Shown here: positions 5,923 to 20,592 of the stretch, piece after piece
Position numbering within the stretch: position 1 is the stretch's first letter
Layout of the letters: every line of letters starts with the position of its first letter
DNA from: Chloroflexota bacterium
GTDB taxonomy: Bacteria > Chloroflexota > Limnocylindria > Limnocylindrales > CSP1-4
Assembly: GCA_003250155.1 (NCBI GenBank)
Contig: QKHE01000090.1
Span: 1-48,444, forward strand
Direction: 5' to 3'
DNA: 48,444 nucleotides
Made by a program: the position numbers and the translations under genes
The notes under the pieces: generated by a model
Seen by the model: the letters and a program-made list of their open reading frames with translations, nothing else
Database searches by the model: none
Told to the model about the DNA's origin: nothing

Positions 5923-6390
5923 CTACCAGCGGCCGAACGCGGGATGCCCGGGGCCCACGGCGACGAAGGTCGCCCGGCCCGTGGCCGTGACGGTGCCGCC
6001 TGACTCGACCGTCGTCTCGACCGTTGCGCGGTCGTCCTGGAGATCGACGACCCGTCCGACCAGGCGAACAGGCTCACTCGACGGCGTTGGCCTTCGAAAT
6101 CGGATCGACAGCTCGGCGGTCACGGTCGACGGCGGGGTGGAGGAGCCGGAGCGGGCCATCAGGGCCGCGATCGCCGTCCAGTTCGAGTGGCAGTCGATCA
6201 CCGTGCCGAGGATGCCGCCGTTGACGAAGCCGTCGAATGCCTCGTGCTCGCGCCGTGCCTGCCACTCGGCGACGACCGTGCTTTCGTCCGCCTCGAAGCT
6301 CCGGATGCGAAGTCCCCGCTCGTTGGCCGGCCCGCACCCGAAGCACCGGCCGTCGGGCGCGAGGAGCTCCTGGAGGGATAGACCGTTCAT
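5923..6390 (-). CDS. PaaI-family (hotdog fold) thioesterase
   Basis: CFGCGPANERGL, GFVNGGILGTVIDCHS, TAELSIRFRRPTP. Start moved to the ATG at 6390 because the longer ORF runs through the tRNA and TAGACT lies 7 nt upstream of this ATG. Confidence 0.88.
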   Translation of the reverse strand: MNGLSLQELLAPDGRCFGCGPANERGLRIRSFEADESTVVAEWQARREHEAFDGFVNGGILGTVIDCHSNWTAIAALMARSGSSTPPSTVTAELSIRFRRPTPSSEPVRLVGRVVDLQDDRATVETTVESGGTVTATGRATFVAVGPGHPAFGRW

Positions 6391-6411
6391 CGCGGCGAGT
6401 CTAGGGAGGAG

Positions 6412-6497
6412 TGGTACCGGGGGAGGGATTCGAACCCTCAAGAGGTTGCCCTCAATGGTGTTTGAGACCATCGCGTATACCGTTCCGCCACCCCGGC
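6412..6497 (-). tRNA. tRNA-Leu(CAA), CCA encoded
   Basis: Reverse complement GCCGGGGTGGCGGAACGGTATACGCGATGGTCTCAAACACCATTGAGGGCAACCTCTTGAGGGTTCGAATCCCTCCCCCGGTACCA: acceptor stem, anticodon stem ATGGT/ACCAT with loop CTCAAAC, long variable arm, GGTTCGAATCC T-arm, discriminator A + CCA. Confidence 0.95.
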
Positions 6498-6551: not shown

Positions 6552-7586
6552 ATGGCTGATCAGATCATGACCGTGCTCGGGCCGATCGAGCCCGAGGCGC
6601 TCGGGGTGACCCTGGCGCATGAGCACCTCGTGTTCGACCTGCGCTGCCTGTGGGAGGAGCCGCCACCGGAGCGGGCGTACCTGGTTGATGCCGAGCCGAC
6701 GCTCGAGAACCGCGGCGCGATGACCCGCGACGCGTATCACTCGAAAGTCAACCTCCATCTCGACGACCCGACGCTGGTCGAGGAAGACCTCTACCGCTAC
6801 AGGGCAGCCGGTGGGGCGTCGCTCATCGACCTGACGACCACCGGCCTGGCGCCGAACCCGGACGCCGCCGTCGCCCTGGCGCGCGCGACCGGCCTGCACG
6901 TCGTCGCCGGCGCCGGGTACTACCGGCGGCGCTGCCTTCCGGATGGCGTCGACGAGCTCTCCGAAGATGCCCTCGCCGAGGAACTGGAACGCGCCGTCCG
7001 CGAAGGGTTCCCGCGAACAACGGTCCGGGCCGGGATCCTCGGCGAGCTCGGCACCGCGACGCCGATCCAGCCGTTCGAGGAGCGCCAGCTGCGGGCGGCC
7101 GCGCGGGTCCAGCGGGCGACCGGCGTCGGGATCAACGTCCACCCCGCGATCTGGGGCCACGAGCACCTCCGGATCATCGACATCCTCGAGTCCGCCGGAG
7201 CCGACCTGTCACGCGTCGCCATCAGCCACTGCGACGAGCTCGTCGAGCCCGAGTGGCACGCGAAGATCGCCGAGCGCGGGGTCATGCTGTGCTTCGACAC
7301 ATTCGGCGCGGAGGGCGTGTCGGACAGCGACGGCTCGCAGGAGCCGCGCGACAGCCAACGCCTCGACTGCCTCCGCCGGCTGCTCGACGCCGGCCGGGCC
7401 GGCCAGCTGCTCCTGTCGCACGACGTCTGCACCCGCCTCCAGCTCCACCGCTACGGCGGCTGGGGCTATGACCACATCCTCGTGAGCATCGTGCCGGGCC
7501 TTCGACGCGGCGGCGTGCCGGACGACGACATCGACCGGATGCTCATCGACAACCCTCGGCGGCTGCTGGCGATGCCGGCGACCTGA
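6552..7586 (+). CDS. Phosphotriesterase-family (PHP/PTE-like) amidohydrolase
   Basis: IMTVLGPI, TLAHEHL, GILGELG (Glu in place of the carbamylated Lys), NVH, ISHCD, LLLSHD, DNPRRLL. Confidence 0.9.
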   Translation: MADQIMTVLGPIEPEALGVTLAHEHLVFDLRCLWEEPPPERAYLVDAEPTLENRGAMTRDAYHSKVNLHLDDPTLVEEDLYRYRAAGGASLIDLTTTGLAPNPDAAVALARATGLHVVAGAGYYRRRCLPDGVDELSEDALAEELERAVREGFPRTTVRAGILGELGTATPIQPFEERQLRAAARVQRATGVGINVHPAIWGHEHLRIIDILESAGADLSRVAISHCDELVEPEWHAKIAERGVMLCFDTFGAEGVSDSDGSQEPRDSQRLDCLRRLLDAGRAGQLLLSHDVCTRLQLHRYGGWGYDHILVSIVPGLRRGGVPDDDIDRMLIDNPRRLLAMPAT

Positions 7587-7594
7587 GGCGTTCC

Positions 7595-7623
7595 GGGAAC
7601 CTCGGCGGGCGGCGGTCCGTCTG
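7595..7623 (+). promoter_or_regulatory. Putative ECF-sigma promoter (GGAAC-N17-CGTC) upstream of the ECF sigma gene
   Basis: GGGAAC ctcggcgggcggcggtc CGTCTG; the same elements and spacing recur at 9156-9184; matches the general ECF -35 AAC / -10 CGT pattern. Confidence 0.7.
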
Positions 7624-7635
7624 CTCGGGGACCGA

Positions 7636-7644
7636 TGCTAGACT
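7636..7644 (+). promoter_or_regulatory. Extended -10 housekeeping promoter (TGcTAGACT) for the ECF sigma gene
   Basis: ATGCTAGACT at 7635-7644 is identical to the 10-mer before uvrB (18171-18180); GGAGG follows before GTG 7686. Confidence 0.55.
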
Positions 7645-7685
7645 CGCGCAGCCTCACCATCGCCGTCCGGAGGAAACCCCCGAGC

Positions 7686-8294
7686 GTGGAGGACCTTCGC
7701 GCGACGAGCGTCGCCGACGATCCCGTCCAGCGCCGTGACCTGATTCTGCTGGAGCGCGCCCGCGACGGCGACCTCGACGCGTTCAACGACCTGGTTGTCG
7801 TCTACCAGGACATGCTCTACGCGCTCGTCGTCCGGATGGTCCCGGACCGCGACCAGGCGTCGGACGCGGTCCAGGAGGCGTTCTTCAACGCCTACCGGAA
7901 CCTTGACGCGTTCCGCGGCGGCAGCGTGAAGTCGTGGCTGAGCCGGATCGCGATCAACGCGGCGATGGATACGCAGCGCTATCGCAAGCGGCGCCCGGCC
8001 GACCCCTACCCGGAGCTCGACGACGAGGCATGGCAGCCGCCCGCCGACGCCTCGGCCGACCCCGTTACGACGTCGCTCATGGCCGAGCGGCATCGCGCGC
8101 TCAACGCCGCGCTGGCCCGGATCACCGACGACCAGCGCGCGGCGATCGTGCTCTACGACGTCGAGGGCTATGACTACGCGGAGATCGCCGACATCACGGG
8201 GGTTTCGGTCGGCACGGTCAAGTCGCGAATCCACCGCGGCCGGCTTGCGCTGCGGGGGCTGCTCGTCGACCGGATGGACCTCTTTCGTGGCTGA
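7686..8294 (+). CDS. ECF sigma-70 family RNA polymerase sigma factor
   Basis: Region 2 (GDLDAFNDLV, DAVQEAFFNAYR, SWLSRIAIN) and region 4 (YDYAEIADITGVSVGTVKSRIHRGR). GTG 7686 is preferred over ATG 7635, which overlaps the -10. Confidence 0.93.
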   Translation: MEDLRATSVADDPVQRRDLILLERARDGDLDAFNDLVVVYQDMLYALVVRMVPDRDQASDAVQEAFFNAYRNLDAFRGGSVKSWLSRIAINAAMDTQRYRKRRPADPYPELDDEAWQPPADASADPVTTSLMAERHRALNAALARITDDQRAAIVLYDVEGYDYAEIADITGVSVGTVKSRIHRGRLALRGLLVDRMDLFRG

Positions 8295-9132
8295 TCAGCT
8301 CGAGCTGCCCGAGTTCGGCGGGGCCCCCGAGCCTGACGAGGCCGATGGGAATCACGAGCCCGACGAGCTCGCCGTGCCGGCCGCCGGTCAGACCGACCCC
8401 GCGCTCGGGGCCGCCGCCCGGCACGCGCTCCATGACGAGGAGCTGGTCGCGGCCTACGCGGCCGGTGCGCTGGAGGCCGAGGATCCCGAAGACGTCGCAC
8501 GGGCGCGGTCGCTCGTCGAGCGGTGTTCCGTGTGCCACGACCTGCACGCGGACCTCCTGGCGATCGCGTCGGCCCACCGGGCGACGGCCGCCATGGTCCT
8601 TGCCGCGTCGCGTGACTACCGGCTGAGCGAGGACGATGCGGAGCGGCTGCGGCCGGGCGTGGCGCTCGTTCGCGCGGCGCCGGAGGCAGCCGCCGCGGAG
8701 GCCGCCGCCGTGCAGCCAGCCGCGGCGGCTCCGGCCGGGGCGGCGGCGCTGCCCGGGGACGCCGTCGCGCCACGACGACCGGCCGGGCCGTCGCTTGTCG
8801 AGCGAATTCGGGCGATCTTCTGGCCGCTCACCCAGTCGCTGGGCGGCAGCCTCGTCGCGGCCGGCCTGGTGGGGATTGTCATCGCGTCCGCGAGTCTCGC
8901 GGCCGTGCCGGTCGGCACGCCGTCGTCACCCGCCTTCGGCACGCAGGAAGGTGGCAATCCGGCGCCGACGGGCGATGTCGCCCTGGTCACGGACGATCGA
9001 TCGAGCGGGTTCGGGGTCGGGCCGGCGACCCCCGACGTTCGAGTCGTGGCGATCGGCGTGTCGGGCGGTGCCGTGCTACTCGGGCTGGTGCTTCTGGTGC
9101 GATCGCGTCGTCGGGCTCGGGAATCGCTCTGA
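8287..9132 (+). CDS. Putative membrane anti-sigma factor 1 (ZAS-like)
   Basis: GTG overlaps the sigma 3' end (GTGGCTGA). RHALHDEELVAAYA...ERCSVCHDLHADLLA...RDYRLS; two hydrophobic segments and a basic C-tail. Confidence 0.75.
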   Translation: MADQLELPEFGGAPEPDEADGNHEPDELAVPAAGQTDPALGAAARHALHDEELVAAYAAGALEAEDPEDVARARSLVERCSVCHDLHADLLAIASAHRATAAMVLAASRDYRLSEDDAERLRPGVALVRAAPEAAAAEAAAVQPAAAAPAGAAALPGDAVAPRRPAGPSLVERIRAIFWPLTQSLGGSLVAAGLVGIVIASASLAAVPVGTPSSPAFGTQEGGNPAPTGDVALVTDDRSSGFGVGPATPDVRVVAIGVSGGAVLLGLVLLVRSRRRARESL

Positions 9133-9155
9133 ACGGCGAATCCCGAGCGCAGCAA

Positions 9156-9184
9156 GGGAACTGAAGTCGGCCCCGCACCGTCTG
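9156..9184 (+). promoter_or_regulatory. Second putative ECF-sigma promoter, 9 nt upstream of anti-sigma 2
   Basis: GGGAAC tgaagtcggccccgcac CGTCTG acggacgag ATG. Confidence 0.7.
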
Positions 9185-9193
9185 ACGGACGAG

Positions 9194-9898
9194 ATGCCCA
9201 GTTCCAGCGACCACCCATCCCACGATCCGGAGCTGATCGCGGCGCACGCCGGCGGCGATCTCGCAGGGGCGCAGCTCGTGCTCGCGAGCCGGCTGACTTC
9301 CTCGTGCGAGGATTGCGCTCGCCTGCACGCCGACCTGCTGGCGCTCGCCGCCGCGACCCGGTCATTGCCGGCGAACGCGACCGCACCACGCGATTACCGG
9401 CTCAGCACCGACCAGGCGGAACGGCTCCGGCGGGGCGGCCTCGTCCGGCGCCTCCTCCGTCCGTTCGCCAATCCGGCGTCGGGCGTTCGGCCGCTGGCCG
9501 TCACCTTCAGCGGTCTCGGAGCGATCGGTCTCGCGGTCGTCATGCTGGTGCCGCTTCTCGGTGCCTCGATGGCGTCGGCTCCGGTCCCGGCTGCCGGAGG
9601 CGACGGGTTCACGGCCGCAGGCGCCACCGCGGCGCCGGCGGAGCAGCCCGTGTTCGGCGTCCTGCCGGGGCCGACCGCAGGGACGGCCAGGGACCACGTC
9701 GAGGCGACGGCGCAGCCCGGCGAGGCCGATGCCGTCGATGAGAACGGGTCCGGCCAGGCGAGTGGTGGCAAGACCGCCTCGGCCACGGCGTCGGTCGGGA
9801 CGAATCCGTCCACGATCCTGCTGATCGCCTCGCTCGTGCTCCTGGCGACCGGGGTTGGGCTGCTCGCCCTTCGGATCCTCGCCCGCCGCGTCGCCTGA
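9194..9898 (+). CDS. Putative membrane anti-sigma factor 2 (paralog of the upstream gene)
   Basis: Start moved to ATG 9194. DHPSHDPELIAAHA...SSCEDCARLHADLLA...RDYRLSTDQAERLR; two TM segments and a basic tail. Confidence 0.75.
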   Translation: MPSSSDHPSHDPELIAAHAGGDLAGAQLVLASRLTSSCEDCARLHADLLALAAATRSLPANATAPRDYRLSTDQAERLRRGGLVRRLLRPFANPASGVRPLAVTFSGLGAIGLAVVMLVPLLGASMASAPVPAAGGDGFTAAGATAAPAEQPVFGVLPGPTAGTARDHVEATAQPGEADAVDENGSGQASGGKTASATASVGTNPSTILLIASLVLLATGVGLLALRILARRVA

Positions 9899-9995: not shown

Positions 9996-12920
9996 ATGGC
10001 ACGCCTGATGCTGCTCGACGGGTTCGGGCTCGTCTATCGCGGATATTTCGCGCTCCCGCCACTGACGACGTCGAAGGGCGAGCTCGTCAACGGCGTCTTC
10101 GGCTTCTGCAGCATCGTCCTGCGCGGGATCGCCGACCTGAAGCCGGATTACGTCGCGGTCGCGTTCGACCTCGCCGGCCCGACCTTCCGCCACGAGCAGT
10201 ACGCCGAGTACAAGGCCACCCGGACGCGGATGCCGGACGACCTGGCCGCCCAGTTCCCGATGGTCCGCGAGGTCGTGAAGGCGCTGCGCTTCCCGGTCTA
10301 CGAGATGCAGGGCTACGAGGCCGACGACGTCATCGGGACCCTCGCCGTCCAGGCCGAGGCCGCCGACGTCGAGACGACGATCGTCAGCGTCGACCTCGAC
10401 ATGCTCCAGCTCGTGAGCGACAGGACGCGGCTCATGACGACGCGCTCCGGCGTCGAGAACACGGTCATCTACGACCCGGCGCGGATCGATGAGCGATTCG
10501 GGCTACGACCGGACCAGATGATCGACTACAAGGCCCTGAAGGGCGACCCGACCGACAACATCCCCGGCGTGCCGGGAGTCGGCGAGAAGACCGCGGCCAA
10601 GCTCGTCGCCCAGTTCGGGACCCTCGATGCCCTGTACGAGCGGATCGAGGAGGTGAAGCCGGACAAGCTGCGCGAGAAGCTGCGCGAGAATCGCGACGAC
10701 GTGTTTCGCGGCCGCCAGCTGACGACGATCGTCCGCGACCTGCCACTGGCGCTCGACCTCGATGCCGCGCGCCTCGGCGACTACGACCGCGACACGGTCA
10801 TCCGCCTGTTCCGCGAGTACGAGTTCCGGACGCTCATCGAACGGCTGCCGGCGATGTCCGGCGAGGATCCCGCGGCGAAGATCCAGGCGCTGCGCGAGGT
10901 CGCGACGAGCGGCTCGGTGCCTGCCGCCAAGGTCGGCTCCGATCGGCCGGCGGGCTGGGGCGGCGGACGGCCGATCCGGGCCGGCAGCCTCGGCGGCGAC
11001 GGCCTGCAGCTGTCGCTCGATTTCGACGCGGTCGGCGGCAGCGGCACGACCGCCGCGCCACGGCCGGCCGCCGGGGGGGCGAGCGAGCGGTTCGACGACC
11101 TGGCGACGGCGCTCGCCGCGACGATCGCCGATCCGACGCGGATCGGGATCGTCGACCTCGAGGGGGTCGGCGCGCTGGAGCCCTGGCTGGCGGAGCAGAA
11201 GGTCGTCGGCGCGGCGATCGCGTCCGACGATCCGCGCCCGCGCCGCGGCATCGCCCAGGCCTTCGCCGTCGCGGGCCGTGACGGCCGCGTCGTCGTCGCG
11301 GCCGGGTCGGAGGCGTCGAGCACGTTGCGGGCTGCGGTCGAGTCGCGCGAGATCCCGATCGTGGCCCACGAGGCGAAGCCGATCCTCGTCGCGCGGTTCG
11401 CGGCGGATCCCGCGGCCCCGGCAACGGCGGTCGAATTCGACACCCAGATCGCAGCCTACATCCTGAACGCCGCGCTGCGATCGCAGGCGATCGCCGACGT
11501 CGTGGCCGAGCGCCTCGACCTCGTGCTGCCGCCGCCCAAGGAGCTCGATCCCGTGCATCGCGCCGGGCTCGAGGCGCTGGCGGCGCTCGCCGTCCGCGAC
11601 GTGCTCGCCCGGTCCCTCGAAGAGGAGGGCCTCGAGCGGCTGTTCCGCGAGATCGAGCTGCCGCTCGTCCCGATCCTGGCCCGGATGGAGGCGGACGGGG
11701 TCGCCGTCGACCTCGAGGCGCTGGCCGCGCTCGATCGCGAGTTCGGCGCGGAGATCACGCGACTCGAGGAGGAGATCTACGGCGCCGTCGGCCACCAGTT
11801 CACGATCGGCTCTCCGAAGCAGCTCGGCGACATCCTGTTCGAGGAGCTCAAGCTGCCGAAAGGCAAGCGCACGAAGACCGGCTACTCGACCGATGCGTCG
11901 GTCCTCGAGGAGCTCGTCGGCGTCCATCCGGTCGTCCAGCCGATCCTCGACTGGCGGGTCTATACGAAGCTCCGCTCGACGTATGTCGAGGCGTTGCCGA
12001 CGCTGATCGCCGACGACGGCCGCGTCCACACGACCTTCCACCAGGCGGTCGCCGCGACCGGGCGGCTGTCGTCCTCCGACCCGAACCTCCAGAACATCCC
12101 GATCCGGACCCCGCTCGGGCGGCGCATCCGCAGCGCGTTCATCGCCGGCGCGCCGGACAGCGTGCTGGTGGCCGCGGACTACTCGCAGATCGAGCTGCGG
12201 ATCATCGCCCACGTGTCGGGCGACCAGCACCTCAAGGAGGCCTTCGAGCAGCAGCTGGACATCCACCGCGCCACCGCCGCGCGAGTCCTCCACAAGGCGC
12301 CCGACGACATCACCGCCGATGAGCGCTCGATGGCCAAGATGGTCAACTTCGGACTGGCCTACGGGATGAGCGACTACGGCCTGTCGACACGGGCCGGCAT
12401 CAGCCGCCAGGAGGCACAGGACTTCATCAACTCGTACTTCGCCGCCTACAGCGGCATCAGCTACTACATGCTCCACATCAAGGAGACGGCCCGTCGGCAG
12501 GGCTTCGTGACCACGCTGCTGGGCCGGAAGCGCCAGATCCCGGAGCTGCATGCCGCGATCCCGGCCCTGCGCGGGGCAGGGGAGCGGATGGCGATCAACA
12601 TGCCGATCCAGGGCACCGCGGCGGACATCGTGAAGATCGCGATGATCCGGCTCGCCGAGCGGCTGGCGGCGGATGGCTTCCGGGCCCGGATGCTGCTCCA
12701 GGTACACGACGAGCTGCTGCTCGAGGTGCCGCGCGACGAGGTCGACCGGCTCGTGCCGCTGCTGCGCGAGACGATGGAGGGCGCCCTGCCGCTCGATGTC
12801 CCGCTGACCGTCGATGTCAAGGTCGGGACCGACTGGGAGTCGATGGCGCCGGTCTCGCGCCGCGATGCCGCGCTGGCCGAGGCCGACGAGGCGCCGGCCG
12901 CGAGTCCAACCGGCGGTTGA
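9996..12920 (+). CDS. polA: DNA polymerase I
   Basis: 5'-3' exonuclease (LLDG, YKATR, YEADD, GDPTDNIPGVPGVGEKTA); polymerase motifs TGRLSS, ADYSQIELR, AKMVNFGLAYG, QVHDEL; 3'-5' exo region degenerate. Confidence 0.98.
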   Translation: MARLMLLDGFGLVYRGYFALPPLTTSKGELVNGVFGFCSIVLRGIADLKPDYVAVAFDLAGPTFRHEQYAEYKATRTRMPDDLAAQFPMVREVVKALRFPVYEMQGYEADDVIGTLAVQAEAADVETTIVSVDLDMLQLVSDRTRLMTTRSGVENTVIYDPARIDERFGLRPDQMIDYKALKGDPTDNIPGVPGVGEKTAAKLVAQFGTLDALYERIEEVKPDKLREKLRENRDDVFRGRQLTTIVRDLPLALDLDAARLGDYDRDTVIRLFREYEFRTLIERLPAMSGEDPAAKIQALREVATSGSVPAAKVGSDRPAGWGGGRPIRAGSLGGDGLQLSLDFDAVGGSGTTAAPRPAAGGASERFDDLATALAATIADPTRIGIVDLEGVGALEPWLAEQKVVGAAIASDDPRPRRGIAQAFAVAGRDGRVVVAAGSEASSTLRAAVESREIPIVAHEAKPILVARFAADPAAPATAVEFDTQIAAYILNAALRSQAIADVVAERLDLVLPPPKELDPVHRAGLEALAALAVRDVLARSLEEEGLERLFREIELPLVPILARMEADGVAVDLEALAALDREFGAEITRLEEEIYGAVGHQFTIGSPKQLGDILFEELKLPKGKRTKTGYSTDASVLEELVGVHPVVQPILDWRVYTKLRSTYVEALPTLIADDGRVHTTFHQAVAATGRLSSSDPNLQNIPIRTPLGRRIRSAFIAGAPDSVLVAADYSQIELRIIAHVSGDQHLKEAFEQQLDIHRATAARVLHKAPDDITADERSMAKMVNFGLAYGMSDYGLSTRAGISRQEAQDFINSYFAAYSGISYYMLHIKETARRQGFVTTLLGRKRQIPELHAAIPALRGAGERMAINMPIQGTAADIVKIAMIRLAERLAADGFRARMLLQVHDELLLEVPRDEVDRLVPLLRETMEGALPLDVPLTVDVKVGTDWESMAPVSRRDAALAEADEAPAASPTGG

Positions 12921-12921
12921 C

Positions 12922-13368
12922 GTGGGGACCACGGATCGCGCCCAGCCAGATTCGGTCAATGACCGCCCGGAGAACGCGGCGATTCTCGCTCGCCTCAGGG
13001 AGGCGGCCGAGCCGGCGACGTCGGCGTATCGGCTGGGCGAGTGGGAGCTGCACGCCCATCCGGACCTGTGCGAGCGCCTCGACGACGTCGCGCCGGACGG
13101 ACGCCGCGTCGAGGTGTACGGGCTTCCGGGCCGGGCAAGCCCCGGCGGTGTGCTGTACGCCGTCGCCCGTGGCACCAGCGGCATCCTGCTGCGGTTGCCG
13201 GCCGGCTCGGCACGCGACGCCGTCCTTGCGAACGGCGGCGCGGTCGCCACGGACATCGATTCGGACTGGGTACGAGCCGACGCCTGGCTGACCGATGTCC
13301 CGAGCGCGGCCGGCCGGGCGTTGCTCGCCGGGTGGGTGAAGGCGGCACGGAGCGCCGCAGATGCCTGA
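12922..13368 (+). CDS. Hypothetical protein between polA and mutM
   Basis: GTG 1 nt after the polA stop; stop overlaps the mutM start; motifs HPDLCERL, YGLP, YAVARGT..LLRLP. Start uncertain. Confidence 0.65.
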   Translation: MGTTDRAQPDSVNDRPENAAILARLREAAEPATSAYRLGEWELHAHPDLCERLDDVAPDGRRVEVYGLPGRASPGGVLYAVARGTSGILLRLPAGSARDAVLANGGAVATDIDSDWVRADAWLTDVPSAAGRALLAGWVKAARSAADA

Positions 13369-14413
13369 GCTGCCCGAGGTCGAAACCGTGGCCCGCGACC
13401 TTCGCGGGCTGGTCGTCGGGGCTCGGGTCAGCGGGGTCCGCGTCGGATGGCTTCGAACCCTCCGATCGGGCGACGTCGAGGCGTTCGAACGGGCGGTCGT
13501 CGGACGGACGATCGTCGAGACGTCGCGCCGGGCGAAGCTGGTCGTGCTCGAACTCGATGGCGGAGCCGGGCCGGACGGCGTCCCGATGCCGGATGACGGA
13601 CTCGTCATCACCATCCACCTGAAGATGACCGGCCAACTGTTCGTCGTTCGGGCCGGCGCCCCCGAGGACCCGTACATTCGACTGGTGCTGGCGTTCGAGG
13701 ACGGTCGCGAGCTGCGATTCCGGGACATCCGCAAGTTCGGGCGCATCGGGCTGGCGTGGCGCGACCCGGTCAGCGGCGATCTGCGCGGCGAGCTCGGCGG
13801 CGGTCGGACGTTCAAGGGCTTCGGGCCGGAACCGCTCGATCCCGGCTTCACGGCCCGGGCGTTCGCGCGACGGCTTCGGCTGCGGCGCGGCCGGCTGAAG
13901 CCGCTGCTGATGGACCAGTCATTCCTGGCCGGCGTCGGCAACATCTACGCCGACGAGGCGCTGTGGGCCGCGCGGCTCCATCCGCTGCGCTCGGCCGCAT
14001 CGCTGCGGCCGGGCCAGCCGTCGCGCCTGTACCGGGAGCTGCGGCGGATCCTCGGCGAGGCTGTCGAGCGGCGCGGCTCCTCGATCGACGACTACACCGC
14101 GCCCGAGGGCGATGGCGAGATGCAGGAGCGCCTGCTCGTGTACCAGCGCGCCGGCGAGCCGTGCCCGCGCTGCTCGCGTCCGCTCCGCCGGATCGTTGTC
14201 GGCGGCCGCTCGACGCATTTCTGCTCGTGGTGCCAGCGCCTGCCGCCGGCCGATCGTTCGGGCGCAGCGTCGATTCTCCGCTCGATGGAGCCGCGCCCGG
14301 GGCGGGCCGCCGCCGGCCCGCGGACCGGCCCGAGCTGGACGGAGCTGGGCGGCGCGACACGCCGGGCCGCGGCCACCCGCCGCGCCTTGGCCAGGGCGTC
14401 GCAGGCCGGCTGA
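13361..14413 (+). CDS. mutM: Formamidopyrimidine-DNA glycosylase (Fpg)
   Basis: MPELPEVET, HLKMTG, DIRKFG, H2TH LMDQSFLAGVGNIYADE, zinc finger CPRC...CSWCQ. Confidence 0.96.
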   Translation: MPELPEVETVARDLRGLVVGARVSGVRVGWLRTLRSGDVEAFERAVVGRTIVETSRRAKLVVLELDGGAGPDGVPMPDDGLVITIHLKMTGQLFVVRAGAPEDPYIRLVLAFEDGRELRFRDIRKFGRIGLAWRDPVSGDLRGELGGGRTFKGFGPEPLDPGFTARAFARRLRLRRGRLKPLLMDQSFLAGVGNIYADEALWAARLHPLRSAASLRPGQPSRLYRELRRILGEAVERRGSSIDDYTAPEGDGEMQERLLVYQRAGEPCPRCSRPLRRIVVGGRSTHFCSWCQRLPPADRSGAASILRSMEPRPGRAAAGPRTGPSWTELGGATRRAAATRRALARASQAG

Positions 14414-17084: not shown

Positions 17085-17969
17085 CTACGAGGCGGGGCTG
17101 GCCTCGGGGGTCGGAGCGGGCGTCGGCGGCGGTGTCGGCGTGGCGACGGCCGGCTGCGGCGGGATCGACGCGCTGGGATCCGGGTAGACGGGCGGGAACG
17201 GCAGCCCGTACTTCTCGAGAATCCGCGAGGTCGTGGCGCCCAGGCTCCGGACATCGACGTAGCGGACGTCCTGGTCGGGCCGCAGGGCGGCGCTGAAGTT
17301 CACCTGCCCGCTGGCGAGCATGTGATTGATCTCCTCGGCGACCGTGAGCGACGTCCGGATCACGTACAGGCCGCCGGTCCGGGCCAGGATCAGCACGTCC
17401 TGGTACGTCACCTTCGTGGCGAAGTCCGAGTAGTAGCGGCCGAGCGGCTCCAGATCGTCGCGGACTGGGATCGTGGTCGTCATGAAGATGTCGATCGTCT
17501 GGCCCGCCTGGAGCAGGCCGCCGACGGCGCGGTCGTCCGGGATCGTGATCGAGACCGCCCGCCAGGCCTCCGAATCGGGCGCGACCGTCTCGTTCGGTCC
17601 GAGGATCGAGAAGCCCGAGCCGGATGCGGCCGAGGCGACCATGTTCGAGTAGAGCGGCTGGCCCGCGGTGACCGGGATCGCCAGGACCTTGCCGACGAGG
17701 GTGTTCGGGTCGGTCACGATGCCGGCCTGGGTGATCTCGTCCAGCGCGACCTCGCGCAGCTGGAGCTGCGACAGCTGGACCGGCGTCCGTGCCGGGATCG
17801 CGACCGCGGCCACGACGACCGCGACGCGCGGCACCTCGACCGCCCCCGCATTCTGCTGCGCCTGGCTGAGGAGGTAGAACGACGCGCCGCCGGCGACGAG
17901 CGCGAGGACGACGCCGGCCACGACGATGACCTTGCCGCGGCGGCTGGTGTCCTTGTACTCCATCTCCAT
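17085..17969 (-). CDS. cpaB: Flp/Tad pilus assembly protein CpaB/RcpC (SAF domain)
   Basis: N-terminal TM, VVVAAVAIPART SAF domain, RAVSITIPDDRAVGGLLQAGQTIDI; Pro/Thr tail. Start at ATG 17969 with GGAGG upstream. Confidence 0.8.
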   Translation of the reverse strand: MEMEYKDTSRRGKVIVVAGVVLALVAGGASFYLLSQAQQNAGAVEVPRVAVVVAAVAIPARTPVQLSQLQLREVALDEITQAGIVTDPNTLVGKVLAIPVTAGQPLYSNMVASAASGSGFSILGPNETVAPDSEAWRAVSITIPDDRAVGGLLQAGQTIDIFMTTTIPVRDDLEPLGRYYSDFATKVTYQDVLILARTGGLYVIRTSLTVAEEINHMLASGQVNFSAALRPDQDVRYVDVRSLGATTSRILEKYGLPFPPVYPDPSASIPPQPAVATPTPPPTPAPTPEASPAS

Positions 17970-18141
17970 GGGGTCGAGCGATCCTCCGGCGAGCTGTGGT
18001 GTGGCCTGTCTGCCCGTGGATGGGCGGACCGGGACACGCCCGGCGTGACGGGGGCAGTGTCGACACGGGGCACCGGTGTCGATATGGGCGGGTCGTACCA
18101 CGGCGGCGTTCCCAACGGTCCGGTCGGGCCGTCCGTAGGCC

Positions 18142-18157
18142 TCGAACGCCCGTTCGA
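18142..18157. promoter_or_regulatory. LexA (SOS) box upstream of uvrB
   Basis: Perfect TCGAAC-gccc-GTTCGA, the Gram-positive/Chloroflexota-type GAAC-N4-GTTC; overlaps the -35 position of the TAGACT (18175-18180) promoter. Confidence 0.85.
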
Positions 18158-18186
18158 AATCCCGATCGGAATGCTAGACTTCGGGC

Positions 18187-20592
18187 GTGCCAGACTTTCG
18201 CCTCGTCGCCCCGTTCGAGCCGACCGGCGACCAGCCCCAGGCCATCGAGCAGCTCGCCGACGGCGTCAAGCGCGGCCTGCGGCACCAGGTCCTGCTCGGC
18301 GCGACCGGCACCGGCAAGACGATGAGCATCGCCAAGGTCATCGAGGCCGTGAACCGGCCGACGCTCGTGCTGAGCCACAACAAGACCCTCGCCGCGCAGC
18401 TGTACGCCGAGTTCCGCGACTTCTTCCCCGACAACGCCGTCGAGTACTTCGTCAGCTACTTCGACTACTACCAGCCCGAGGCGTACCTGCCGCGGACGGA
18501 CACCTACATCGAGAAGGACTCCAGCCGCAACGACGAGATCGACCGGCTGCGGCACGCCGCGACGCACGCGCTGTTCGAGCGGCGCGACGTCATCGTCGTC
18601 GCCAGCGTCAGCTGCATCTACGGCATCGGCGCCCCGGTCGACTACGGCGCGACCGTGCTCCGACTGCGCCAGGGCGGCCAATATCGCCGCGACGGCGTGC
18701 TGCGCCAGCTCGTCGACCTCCAGTACCAGCGCAACGACACCGACCTGGCCCGGGCCCGGTTCCGCGTTCGCGGCGACACCCTCGAGTTCCAGCCCGCGTC
18801 GGAGGAGCGGCTCGTCCGCGTCGAGTTCTTCGGCGACGAGGTCGAGCGGATCACCGAGCTCGACCCGCTGACCGGCGAGCTCCTGACCGAGCGGAAGGAG
18901 GTCAACGTCTACCCGGCCAGCCACTACGTGACCCCGGCCGACAAGCTCCGCGCCGCGATCGTCGACATCGAGGCCGAAATGGAGGAGCGGGTCGGCGAGC
19001 TGGAGCGCGAGGGCCGCGACCTCGAGGGCGCGCGGCTGCGGCAGCGCACGACGTTCGACCTGGAGATGCTGCGCGAGCTCGGCTTCTGCTCCGGTGTCGA
19101 GAACTACTCGCGGCACCTGTCCCGCCGTGAGGCCGGTTCCCGCCCATGGACGCTGCTCGACTATTTCCCGCCCGACTGGCTGCTCGTCGTCGACGAGTCG
19201 CACATGACGATCCCCCAGGTCGTCGGGATGTACAAGAACGACCGGACCCGGAAGGAGATCCTCGTCGACTTCGGGTTCCGACTGCCGTCGGCGCTCGACA
19301 ACCGGCCGCTGACGTTCGAGGAGTTCGAGGGCCAGCTCAACCAGGCCGTCTACATGTCGGCGACGCCGGGGCCGTACGAGCTCGAGAAGGCCGAGCGGAT
19401 CGCCGAGCAGCTCGTCCGCCCGACGGGCATCGTCGACCCCCAGGTCAGCGTCCGGCCGACGGACGGCCAGATCGACGACCTGCTGGAGGAGATCAAGGTC
19501 CGCGTCGATCGTGGCGAACGGGCGATCGTGACAACGCTCACGAAACGCATGGCCGAGGACCTGACCGACTACCTCCGCGAGCTGGGCGTGAAGGTCCAGT
19601 ACCTGCACTCCGAGGTCGACACCCTCGAACGGGTCGCGATCCTGCGCGACCTGCGGCTCGGGGTCTTCGACGTGGTTGTCGGCATCAACCTGCTGCGCGA
19701 GGGCATCGACCTGCCCGAGGTGACCCTCGTGGCGATCCTCGACGCCGACAAGGAGGGCTTCCTGCGCAGCGCCTGGTCGCTGATCCAGATGATCGGCCGG
19801 GCGGCACGGAACGTCGGCGGCGAGGTCGTGATGTACGCCGACACGATCACCGAGTCGATGCGCGCCGCGATCGACGAGACGGATCGCCGGCGGTCGGTCC
19901 AGGACGCCTACAACCGAGAGCGGGGGATCGTGCCGGCGACCGTCATCAAGGGCATCCGGGACCTCAACGACCAGCTCCGGTCGGTCGCCGAATCGACCGT
20001 CGTCTACACCTCCGAGCGCGAGCAGCTGGCGGGGCGCCTGGCCGAGCTGGATCGCTCCAAGGTTGAATCGCTCCTCGCGCGGATGGAGGCGGAGATGCGG
20101 TCAGCCGCCAAGGAGCTCGAGTTCGAGCGGGCGGCCGCGCTGCGCGATGAGATCCAGGGGATCCGGCTGCGGGTCCTGGAGCAGGACCAGTCGGCGATCG
20201 TGGCCCGGGCGGCCGAGGCGGCCGCTTCCCATGCCGCCGCGGGAAGGGCGGCCCCCGCCTCGGAGGCGGAGCGGGCAGCGGGCGCCAGGACGACCGGCGG
20301 CCGCCGGGCCGACGTGCGGGCGCTCGTCGCCGGGACCGCCGACACGGACGCTCCCGGATCGGTGCTCGAGGTGTCGTCGGTGACCGTGCTGCCGGCGGGC
20401 GATGAGCCGATCGAGGGCGTCGACGGGCCGGCCGAGGGCACCGCCGCCGACTGGCTCCCCGGCATCCGCGACGAGCACGAGGACGAAGGCGGTTGGCAGG
20501 CGCGCTGGCTCGATCGGCCGACCTGGGATCGGACCGTCACACCGAACATCCGGCGCCGCCAGGGCACTCGCCCGCCGCGGCGGCGACGATGA
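18187..20592 (+). CDS. uvrB: Excinuclease ABC subunit B
   Basis: [31 protein letters not shown] beta-hairpin, [26 protein letters not shown] domain; long C-terminal extension. Confidence 0.98.

Follow-up and report, generated by a model that had tools for sequence, protein, structure and literature searches.

A 48,444-nucleotide (nt) stretch of DNA from a Limnocylindrales bacterium (Chloroflexota), hereafter the window, encodes an extracytoplasmic function (ECF) sigma factor followed by two tandem genes for paralogous proteins, anti-sigma 1 (AS1) and anti-sigma 2 (AS2). The genome to which it belongs amounts to 1.88 Mb and is 73% complete. Our analysis suggests that the locus is probably an envelope-stress module in which the sigma factor is predicted to be restrained by two pools of the same type of membrane anti-sigma, one translationally coupled to the sigma gene and the other induced by the sigma factor itself. 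A broader reading, to which we would give rather less than an even chance, is that relatives share one feedback circuit whose encoding has been freely swapped between a single gene with a relay mini open reading frame (mini-ORF), paralogs homogenized by gene conversion, and a two-domain anti-sigma whose internal sigma-dependent promoter gives rise to a one-domain isoform. The same reading would equip this circuit with a long form of the sigma factor that is unstable, with an HxxH/CxxC zinc site that has been rewired, and with a regulon of leaderless lipoproteins, among them a protease inhibitor that dampens the proteolysis by which the response is activated.

The starting point was an earlier note, drawn from the letters of this DNA alone, that had claimed a sigma gene with two tandem paralogs; gene calls agree with it (Table 1), and the start of AS1 overlaps the sigma stop codon within GTGGCTGA. 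The N-terminal block claimed to be shared by the paralogs is indeed present, with 35 of 78 residues identical (E 4e-07) and family profiles matching at a probability of 99.9. The claimed pair of GGGAAC-N17-CGTCTG motifs was likewise found, with starts at 7595 and 9156 and the second copy 9 nt before the AS2 ATG. These are the only two copies in the whole 1.88-Mb genome, where 0.18 would be expected. Genome-wide, the looser GGAAC-N17-CGTC occurs 40 times, where ~48 copies would be expected, and shows no excess relative to other spacers, so that the motif counts only through its conserved position.

Predicted promoters and coupled starts, and gene layouts

Conservation was assessed over orthologous sigma loci, the best 80 of 336 confirmed, most of them labeled Limnocylindrales/Limnocylindria or Chloroflexota; four of the 80 are truncated. 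The loci fall into three layouts: a single anti-sigma gene (27 loci), two genes (the split layout, 26) and one fused two-domain open reading frame (ORF; 23), inside which P2, the predicted promoter of AS2, lies. One locus tallied as split (L062) resembles a fused gene that has been broken. Assembly error does not explain the fused form: two domains are present in 86 of the 120 database homologs listed (181 found), and in 80 of these 86 a Met precedes the second.

P1, the predicted autoregulatory promoter, stands upstream of the sigma gene with a 17-nt spacer in 76 of the 80 loci and with a 16- or 18-nt spacer in three more, the last locus being truncated; its transcript would start near 7630. 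P2 is followed by a start codon 8–12 nt after CGTC in 74 of the 76 untruncated loci (split 26/26, single 26/27, fused 22/23) and precedes the second gene in all nine tandem loci among 15 loci from other genera, which had been picked for two or more hits. This placement agrees with the earlier proposal of a separate, near-leaderless sigma-type promoter for AS2, whose transcript in the window would start near 9191. The start codon follows CGTC by 8 nt in 19 single-gene loci and by 10–12 nt in split loci. That a start codon can lie at the ninth base is a hint that transcription begins at this base; the AS2 leader would then be about 3 nt long. Because a pattern was used to select the P1 and P2 boxes, they are identical by construction, and what carries weight is their presence at a fixed place, for which chance would account at about 0.13% per 100 bp; spacer columns past the first vary, with a majority base at 34–73%.

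Translational coupling of AS1, also proposed earlier, is supported by the comparison. The overlapping GTG occurs in 80 of 80 loci, and the Arg codon that forms it is CGT in 79 of 79, as against 0–24 of 79 at 18 other Arg columns; judged by sequence, the coupled start is under selection at the DNA level. In single-gene loci the coupled GTG is in frame with the anti-sigma in 6 of 27, opens a mini-ORF in 20 and does neither in one. The mini-ORF, of 5–23 codons, ends at a TGA right after the P2 CGTC, 5–8 nt before the anti-sigma start, and its distances of 23, 44, 47, 53, 65 and 68 nt belong to one frame, in loci that form few clades. Because the coupled GTG and P2 are found in all layouts, each layout seems to offer both a coupled and a P2-driven route to the anti-sigma.

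The leader of the sigma gene appears to serve two starts. An ATG 13 nt after the P1 CGTC opens a 17-codon extension that is in frame with the sigma gene in 77 of 79 loci, in 19 of 19 loci of a second set (partly the same genomes) and in 11 of 11 in other genera; the in-frame extensions measure 51, 60 or 69 nt. The A of this ATG is invariant, whereas of 27 further extended -10 sites only 7 have it. That P1 yields a long sigma isoform seems to us somewhat favored; that this isoform is unstable, by analogy with sigmaR' (PMC4921905), is doubtful. Overlapping the ATG is TGCTAGACT, which the earlier note had read as a housekeeping promoter. The element itself stands, although the in-frame ATG inside it had been missed. 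Eight copies of TGCTAGACT exist in the genome, six with a gene start after them. The ATGCTAGA within the leader is kept in 79 of 80 loci, while CTA makes up 0.3% of Leu codons genome-wide and occurs in 0–2 of 79 rows at 14 Leu columns; TGCTAGACT thus looks like a real housekeeping element. Its predicted transcript would begin near 7651, downstream of ATG 7635, and so would use GTG 7686. The column of this GTG is a start codon in all 79 loci (75 GTG, 3 TTG, 1 ATG), compared with GTG in 0–47 of about 79 rows at nine other Val columns, and the distance from GAGG to the start is 12 nt in 78 of 79 loci. One relative (G016) has GAG in place of the short-isoform start codon.

The sigma leader was also examined for a conserved RNA structure; the idea was rejected, as the consensus fold of 47 distinct sequences had no compensatory changes. 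P1 lies farther upstream of the sigma gene in genus g3 (L209, L267–L271). In L209 a short leaderless ORF begins after it and ends with a stop codon that overlaps the sigma ATG, which may serve as a relay to the long start.

Table 1. Positions of predicted and annotated features in the window
Feature	Position	Strand	Remarks
P1, predicted sigma-dependent autoregulatory promoter	7596-7621	+	-35 GGAAC 7596-7600; -10 CGTC 7618-7621
ECF sigma factor, probably ECF25	7635-8294	+	219 aa long form, 202 aa short form; in-frame GTG at 7686
ATG and 17-codon in-frame N-terminal extension	7635-7685	+	predicted long sigma isoform from P1
Candidate housekeeping extended -10 element TGCTAGACT	7636-7644	+	overlaps extension ATG
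Shine-Dalgarno-like GGAGG and GTG start of predicted short sigma isoform	7669-7688	+	conserved start column
AS1 (paralog 1, predicted coupled copy)	8287-9132	+	GTG start, 281 aa; H46, H49, C80, C83; two predicted transmembrane helices; 45-aa loop
P2, predicted sigma-dependent promoter of AS2	9157-9182	+	-35 9157-9161; -10 9179-9182
AS2 (paralog 2, predicted feedback copy, apparently ancestral type)	9194-9898	+	ATG start, 234 aa; H7, H10, C38, C41; transmembrane helices about 101-119 and 208-226; 84-aa loop
Thioesterase-like ORF	5923-6497	-	overlaps tRNA-Leu(CAA)
tRNA-Leu(CAA)	6412-6497		
Phosphotriesterase-family gene	6552-7586		upstream of sigma gene
polA	9996-12920		downstream of AS2
mutM/fpg	13361-14413		

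Putative anti-sigma domains, their predicted zinc site and their history

The N-terminal domains of both paralogs are likely class I anti-sigma domains (ASD), a class defined by a three-helix N-terminal bundle with a fourth helix, encoded after an ECF gene. The modeled bundle of AS2 has a predicted local distance difference test score (pLDDT) of 96–97 over residues 11–50, and the AS1 model one of 89.7. In a structural search with AS2, seven of the top eight rows were anti-sigma domains at Z 4.6–5.9: RslA (Z 5.9, root-mean-square deviation (rmsd) 4.2, 58 aligned) and RsiW (5.7), then PupR, MucA, RseA, RskA and ChrR. The top Foldseek match was ChrR, with an rmsd of 1.3 over 51 columns and E 0.27. 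AS1 retrieved RslA (Z 5.4, rmsd 4.9, 61 aligned), RsiW, PupR and RskA at Z 4.3–5.4, mixed with unrelated helical proteins, of which She4p ties at Z 5.3; here, too, the top Foldseek match was ChrR (E>1). These scores are weak singly, and gene position and the profile matches of AS2 to RslA (E 0.02), RsiW and DdvA add to them.

The residues H7, H10, C38 and C41 of AS2 are invariant in 25 aligned proteins, as they are in the alignments A1 and A4, and among 129 domains compared CxxC is present in all and HxxH in 120. The standard zinc-binding rule for anti-sigmas is Hx3Cx2C (PMC7406223). Its canonical His (position -4 in HxxxCxxC) occurs in none of the 129 domains here and in none of 206 database domains, so that neither set contains the motif of zinc-binding anti-sigmas (ZAS). 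AS2 H10, C38 and C41 align with RslA H25, C54 and C57, and in this register the canonical His is replaced by Leu34. A new His three residues ahead of the first ligand is found in 120 of the 129 domains, and H7 is likely the replacement zinc ligand. Under the Hx3Cx2C rule the HxxH...CxxC arrangement would be scored as non-zinc-binding, and Pfam does not pick it up, which probably leaves anti-sigmas of this type under-annotated.

The loop between the transmembrane helices bears on a second input, an option raised by the earlier note. On such an account a common sigma-binding domain would be joined to different loops reading different outside signals, and the sigma factor would integrate two stresses. 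AS1 loops are indeed consistently shorter than those of AS2 (45–92 versus 81–123 aa). Moreover, several lineages combine near-identical domains with different loops: the paralogs of L097 and L099 are 98% and 95% identical in DNA over the domain, with the near-identity also covering the first helix, and in six of the nine tandem loci of other genera the pairs differ by no more than one residue over 46 aa, in contrast to their loops. The window's own pair is not of this kind. Yet the loops are of low complexity (that of AS2 is rich in A/G/P/S/T), their region is barely conserved, and the resemblance among loops of one paralog class does not exceed that between the classes (0.22, 0.23 and 0.21). 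In addition, the first domain of fused loci has no membrane helix or loop of its own in 22 of 23 cases, and one anti-sigma gene suffices in 27 of the 80 loci. A second input is thus a poor fit as a general rule, and we consider two-input sensing improbable. As for the near-identical pairs themselves, those in L097, L099 and L267–L272 may be products of gene conversion or, in some cases, of assembly collapse.

Distribution across the phylum indicates which parts of the module are old. Within the host's family the anti-sigma profile matches 116 of 122 genomes, and in the order's other family 2 of 28. Sigma homologs at E 1e-35 or better were found in 59 of 151 genomes of the phylum, and 30 loci were examined, 25 of them outside the family. 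In 23 of these 25 a P2-type motif is found at the 3' end of the sigma gene, in front of the next gene; as CGTC falls beyond the sigma stop codon in several of them, coding sequence alone does not account for the motif. P1 was not seen upstream of the sigma gene in any of the 25. A downstream anti-sigma is detectable in 18 of the 25, and all 18 carry the canonical HxxxCxxC. The motif placement, the absence of P1 and the canonical zinc motif together point to P2 and its anti-sigma as ancestral and to P1 as derived, along with the duplication and the change in the zinc motif. AS2 with P2 therefore appears to be the ancestral core and AS1 a variable add-on, which turns around the earlier framing of paralog 2 as the addition. 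On the sigma tree (L125 left out) the split layout accounts for seven changes, six of them forced by well-supported branches, and must have been gained or lost often; the single layout accounts for six (five forced) and the fused one for two. The anti-sigma domain tree, with 77 columns and 54 open forks (the truncated second domain of L083 and domains of 55 aa or less left out), cannot date the duplications.

The seven tree changes of the split layout would also suit the idea that AS2 is the sole working inhibitor and AS1 a recurrent duplicate, be it redundant, decaying or a non-binding accessory, all the more as the AS1 domains of one clade are shortened (H-to-C gap 19–21 versus 27) and low-scoring and a few AS1 genes are broken. 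However, all 26 split-type AS1 proteins retain HxxH and CxxC, and the coupled AS1 start bears the mark of DNA-level selection described above. Furthermore, the window's own pair, with 71% DNA identity and no exact shared run of 12 nt, is evidently old, and yet its AS1 is intact and models well. We regard AS2 acting alone as quite unlikely.

Sigma factor group and predicted regulon

The sigma factor matches PF04542 (Sigma70_r2, 52.2 bits) and PF08281 (r4_2, 68.7 bits), both over the cut-off, with no sigma3 hit; having sigma2 and sigma4 in about 200 aa, it is an ECF (group 4) sigma factor. By its group features it probably belongs to the described group ECF25, the promoter of which is given as GGAAC (-35) / GTC (-10) (PMC7826278). 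The footprinted promoters of this locus are of that type, which is not unique to ECF25. Both window anti-sigmas, like most of those in the outgroup, show two hydrophobic peaks, in keeping with the two transmembrane helices given for the +1 anti-sigma of the group's Chloroflexi members. The tree of the nearest 50% clusters contains no named reference, and none of the 10 clusters checked has a group name. Although SigM is the best NCBIfam match (139.8 bits, below the cut-off of 190), the corresponding group ECF27 (SigM/SigT) was rejected: it is described from Actinobacteria only, with trxB-trxA downstream, mviN upstream and a single-transmembrane (TM) anti-sigma (PMC7826278), whereas the relatives found here are Limnocylindrales with polA downstream.

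A scan for the motif with a gene start 8–11 nt later revealed a candidate regulon that the earlier reading had missed. At spacer 17 it gave seven hits in the window's genome, namely AS2, one coding coincidence and five hydrophobic N-termini, four of them with a lipobox; eight other spacers together gave seven hits, none hydrophobic. When the -35 was relaxed, two more candidates emerged, a serpin and a lipoprotein with a Hint domain. Five relatives yielded 35 hits versus 8 and 5 at wrong spacers and 2 reversed, and among 30 relatives' hits examined there were 21 hydrophobic N-termini, 5 coding coincidences, 1 other ECF gene, 1 short ORF and 2 below threshold. Three targets were tested in homologous loci: one keeps its promoter in 27 of 30, another in 16 of 18 (two rows being the same site) and the META-domain lipoprotein in 21 of 22, at spacer 17 in 7 of them and at spacer 16 in 14. 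Of the 20 sigma genes found in the genome, this one alone has GGAAC-N16/17-CGTC upstream. Hydrophobic and lipoprotein targets point to an envelope function, and the module likely governs an envelope-stress response, with target lipoprotein genes (META, Hint, serpin) that are likely leaderless.

Several targets deserve individual mention. The serpin gene (G000:C40:16538-17860, L288) and its neighbor (17866-19194) are tandem serpin-like genes, the first of which encodes a lipoprotein (PF00079); its GCAAC-N17-CGTC, with the start 8 nt later, is found in 3 of 8 relatives' best loci, and this GCAAC variant could belong to another sigma factor. The Hint-domain lipoprotein family recurs as a predicted leaderless target (G000:C53:3312-4250, i.e. 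L287, and L239, with similar L243, L255, L261 and L262), PF13403 (Hint) being over the cut-off in L287 and L239. The secreted target G000:C121:14484-15038 (L129), whose mature part begins with Cys, had no meaningful match in a Pfam scan; we take it to resemble protease-inhibitor domains of the TIMP/NTR type, and its homologs form tandem pairs in several relatives. Two candidates were dropped: rseP, because the motif seen in the window's genome lacks conserved placement in four relatives, and the C67 ABC-ATPase, because there the motif falls within a coding region and, in 5 of 30 loci, recurs as a coincidence of coding sequence. As to proteases, RseP-type M50 enzymes were found in all five genomes searched, and PrsW (PF13367) in none of the five.

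Very improbable is a cascade in which a different ECF sigma factor reads P1, P2 and the lipoprotein promoters and the locus is merely a downstream step: although the incomplete genome has 20 Sigma70_r2 matches, similar AAC/CGT promoters are read by many ECF groups (PMC7826278) and one other sigma gene has TGAAC-N17-CGTC upstream, the motif stays attached to this sigma gene across the phylum (the 23 of 25 loci outside the family), and GGAAC/GTC is the very promoter given for the best-fitting group, ECF25.

Among neighboring genes, polA is conserved across the class, whereas the phosphotriesterase-family gene lies within 3 kb of the sigma gene in only 2 of the 80 loci. The window also holds mutM/fpg and a thioesterase-like ORF, the real start of which must lie downstream of the listed one because the ORF overlaps tRNA-Leu(CAA). 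One assembly (G001) has two different sigma-locus copies, L061 and L083, one of them fused-type, and is possibly a mixed bin.

Proposed circuit and known systems

For transcription, sigma binding, zinc binding and the trigger, what follows is our inference from the genes and motifs. At rest, the housekeeping promoter would supply a low level of short sigma from GTG 7686; ribosomes ending sigma synthesis would start AS1 at the overlapping GTG, and AS1 may keep the sigma factor at the membrane. Stress would inactivate the anti-sigmas, probably through a cut in the outside loop and then in the first helix. Free sigma would fire P1, giving more sigma in the 17-residue-longer form, which may be as short-lived as sigmaR', as well as the leaderless lipoprotein genes. 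It would also fire P2, producing AS2 alone and thereby shutting the response off.

Several observations weigh against this reading. The 80 loci are related to each other, so that their counts are not independent. With a genome 73% complete, another sigma factor of the same specificity could be missing, and one relative (L263) has the motif ahead of a different ECF gene. Regarding the long isoform, 2 of 79 extensions are out of frame owing to one extra base in homopolymer runs, only about three independent frame-keeping indels back it, and its codon score of -0.26 falls between the coding (0.40) and non-coding (-0.65) controls; for the short one, a Shine-Dalgarno spacing of 12 nt is long. A Pfam scan had no hit for either window anti-sigma, and zf-HC2 matches at E 0.1 or better in only 9 of 45 family members. 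Finally, the fold scores are weak, with no Foldseek E below 0.001, Z under 6 and unrelated helical proteins close behind.

If the proposed module is correct, both the circuit and the regulon become readable for a sigma factor that may be one of the main envelope-stress regulators of Limnocylindrales, an uncultured group. The locus also represents a natural experiment on a modeled question, the effect of upstream-only, downstream-only and dual feedback (PMC12633294): three promoter layouts and three encodings of the putative coupled and induced anti-sigma pools coexist among relatives, open to comparison.

The earlier note had put the system forward as its best candidate for an undescribed one, and this holds in part. 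Its wiring logic is known from rpoE-rseA (PMC12633294), NepR1/NepR2 (PMC9303464) and sigmaR/sigmaR' (PMC4921905), and the sigma factor probably belongs to ECF25, but the encoding was not found in print. This applies to the three seemingly interchangeable layouts, the predicted internal-promoter isoform, the altered putative zinc site, the probable long sigma form and the candidate leaderless lipoprotein regulon. Likewise, a literature search, with most subscription papers outside it, found no description of tandem or fused class I anti-sigma pairs or of this locus. The likeness to ECF25 extends to the GGAAC/GTC promoter, to Chloroflexi members, to the two TM helices and the zinc-type domain of the +1 anti-sigma (PMC7826278) and to the polA neighbor, given for ECF25s2; the zinc motif without the HxxxCxxC His is different. 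The studied member of ECF25 is SigG-SapG of Nostoc punctiforme, with a role of SigG in cell-wall stress, and the accessible text of the group's description makes no mention of a second anti-sigma, an internal promoter, a fused form or a sigma isoform (PMC7826278).

The zinc class I anti-sigmas RslA, RsiW and ChrR (PMC4960319, PMC7406223) are similar in fold and register and differ in the His that all domains here have lost. Streptomyces coelicolor sigmaR/sigmaR' offers a parallel for the sigma leader. There the self promoter, lying upstream, yields a sigma with additional N-terminal residues, and the short form comes from the downstream promoter (PMC4921905). However, the extension comprises 55 residues there and 17 here, instability has been shown for sigmaR', and RsrA is a single soluble CHCC protein (PMC4921905).

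Parallels in wiring come from two other systems. In E. coli rpoE-rseABC, a housekeeping and a self promoter serve the operon and the downstream, sigma-only rseAP3 serves the anti-sigma, a set that gives positive and negative feedback (PMC12633294, a preprint; PMC8595263). Both pools are one protein there, and the regulated leader is long (PMC12633294, PMC8595263). In Limnocylindrales, by contrast, the predicted pools are split into two paralogs or isoforms that are near-leaderless and have two TM helices. RseA of E. coli has a single TM helix. In the EcfG system of Sphingopyxis granuli, a resting-state paralog is similarly complemented by a sigma-induced paralog that limits the response (NepR1/NepR2; PMC9303464). 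There, however, NepR is freed by PhyR partner switching, the paralogs are encoded apart and the operonic copy is the induced one (PMC9303464), whereas in Limnocylindrales two likely class I membrane proteins stand in tandem behind the sigma factor.

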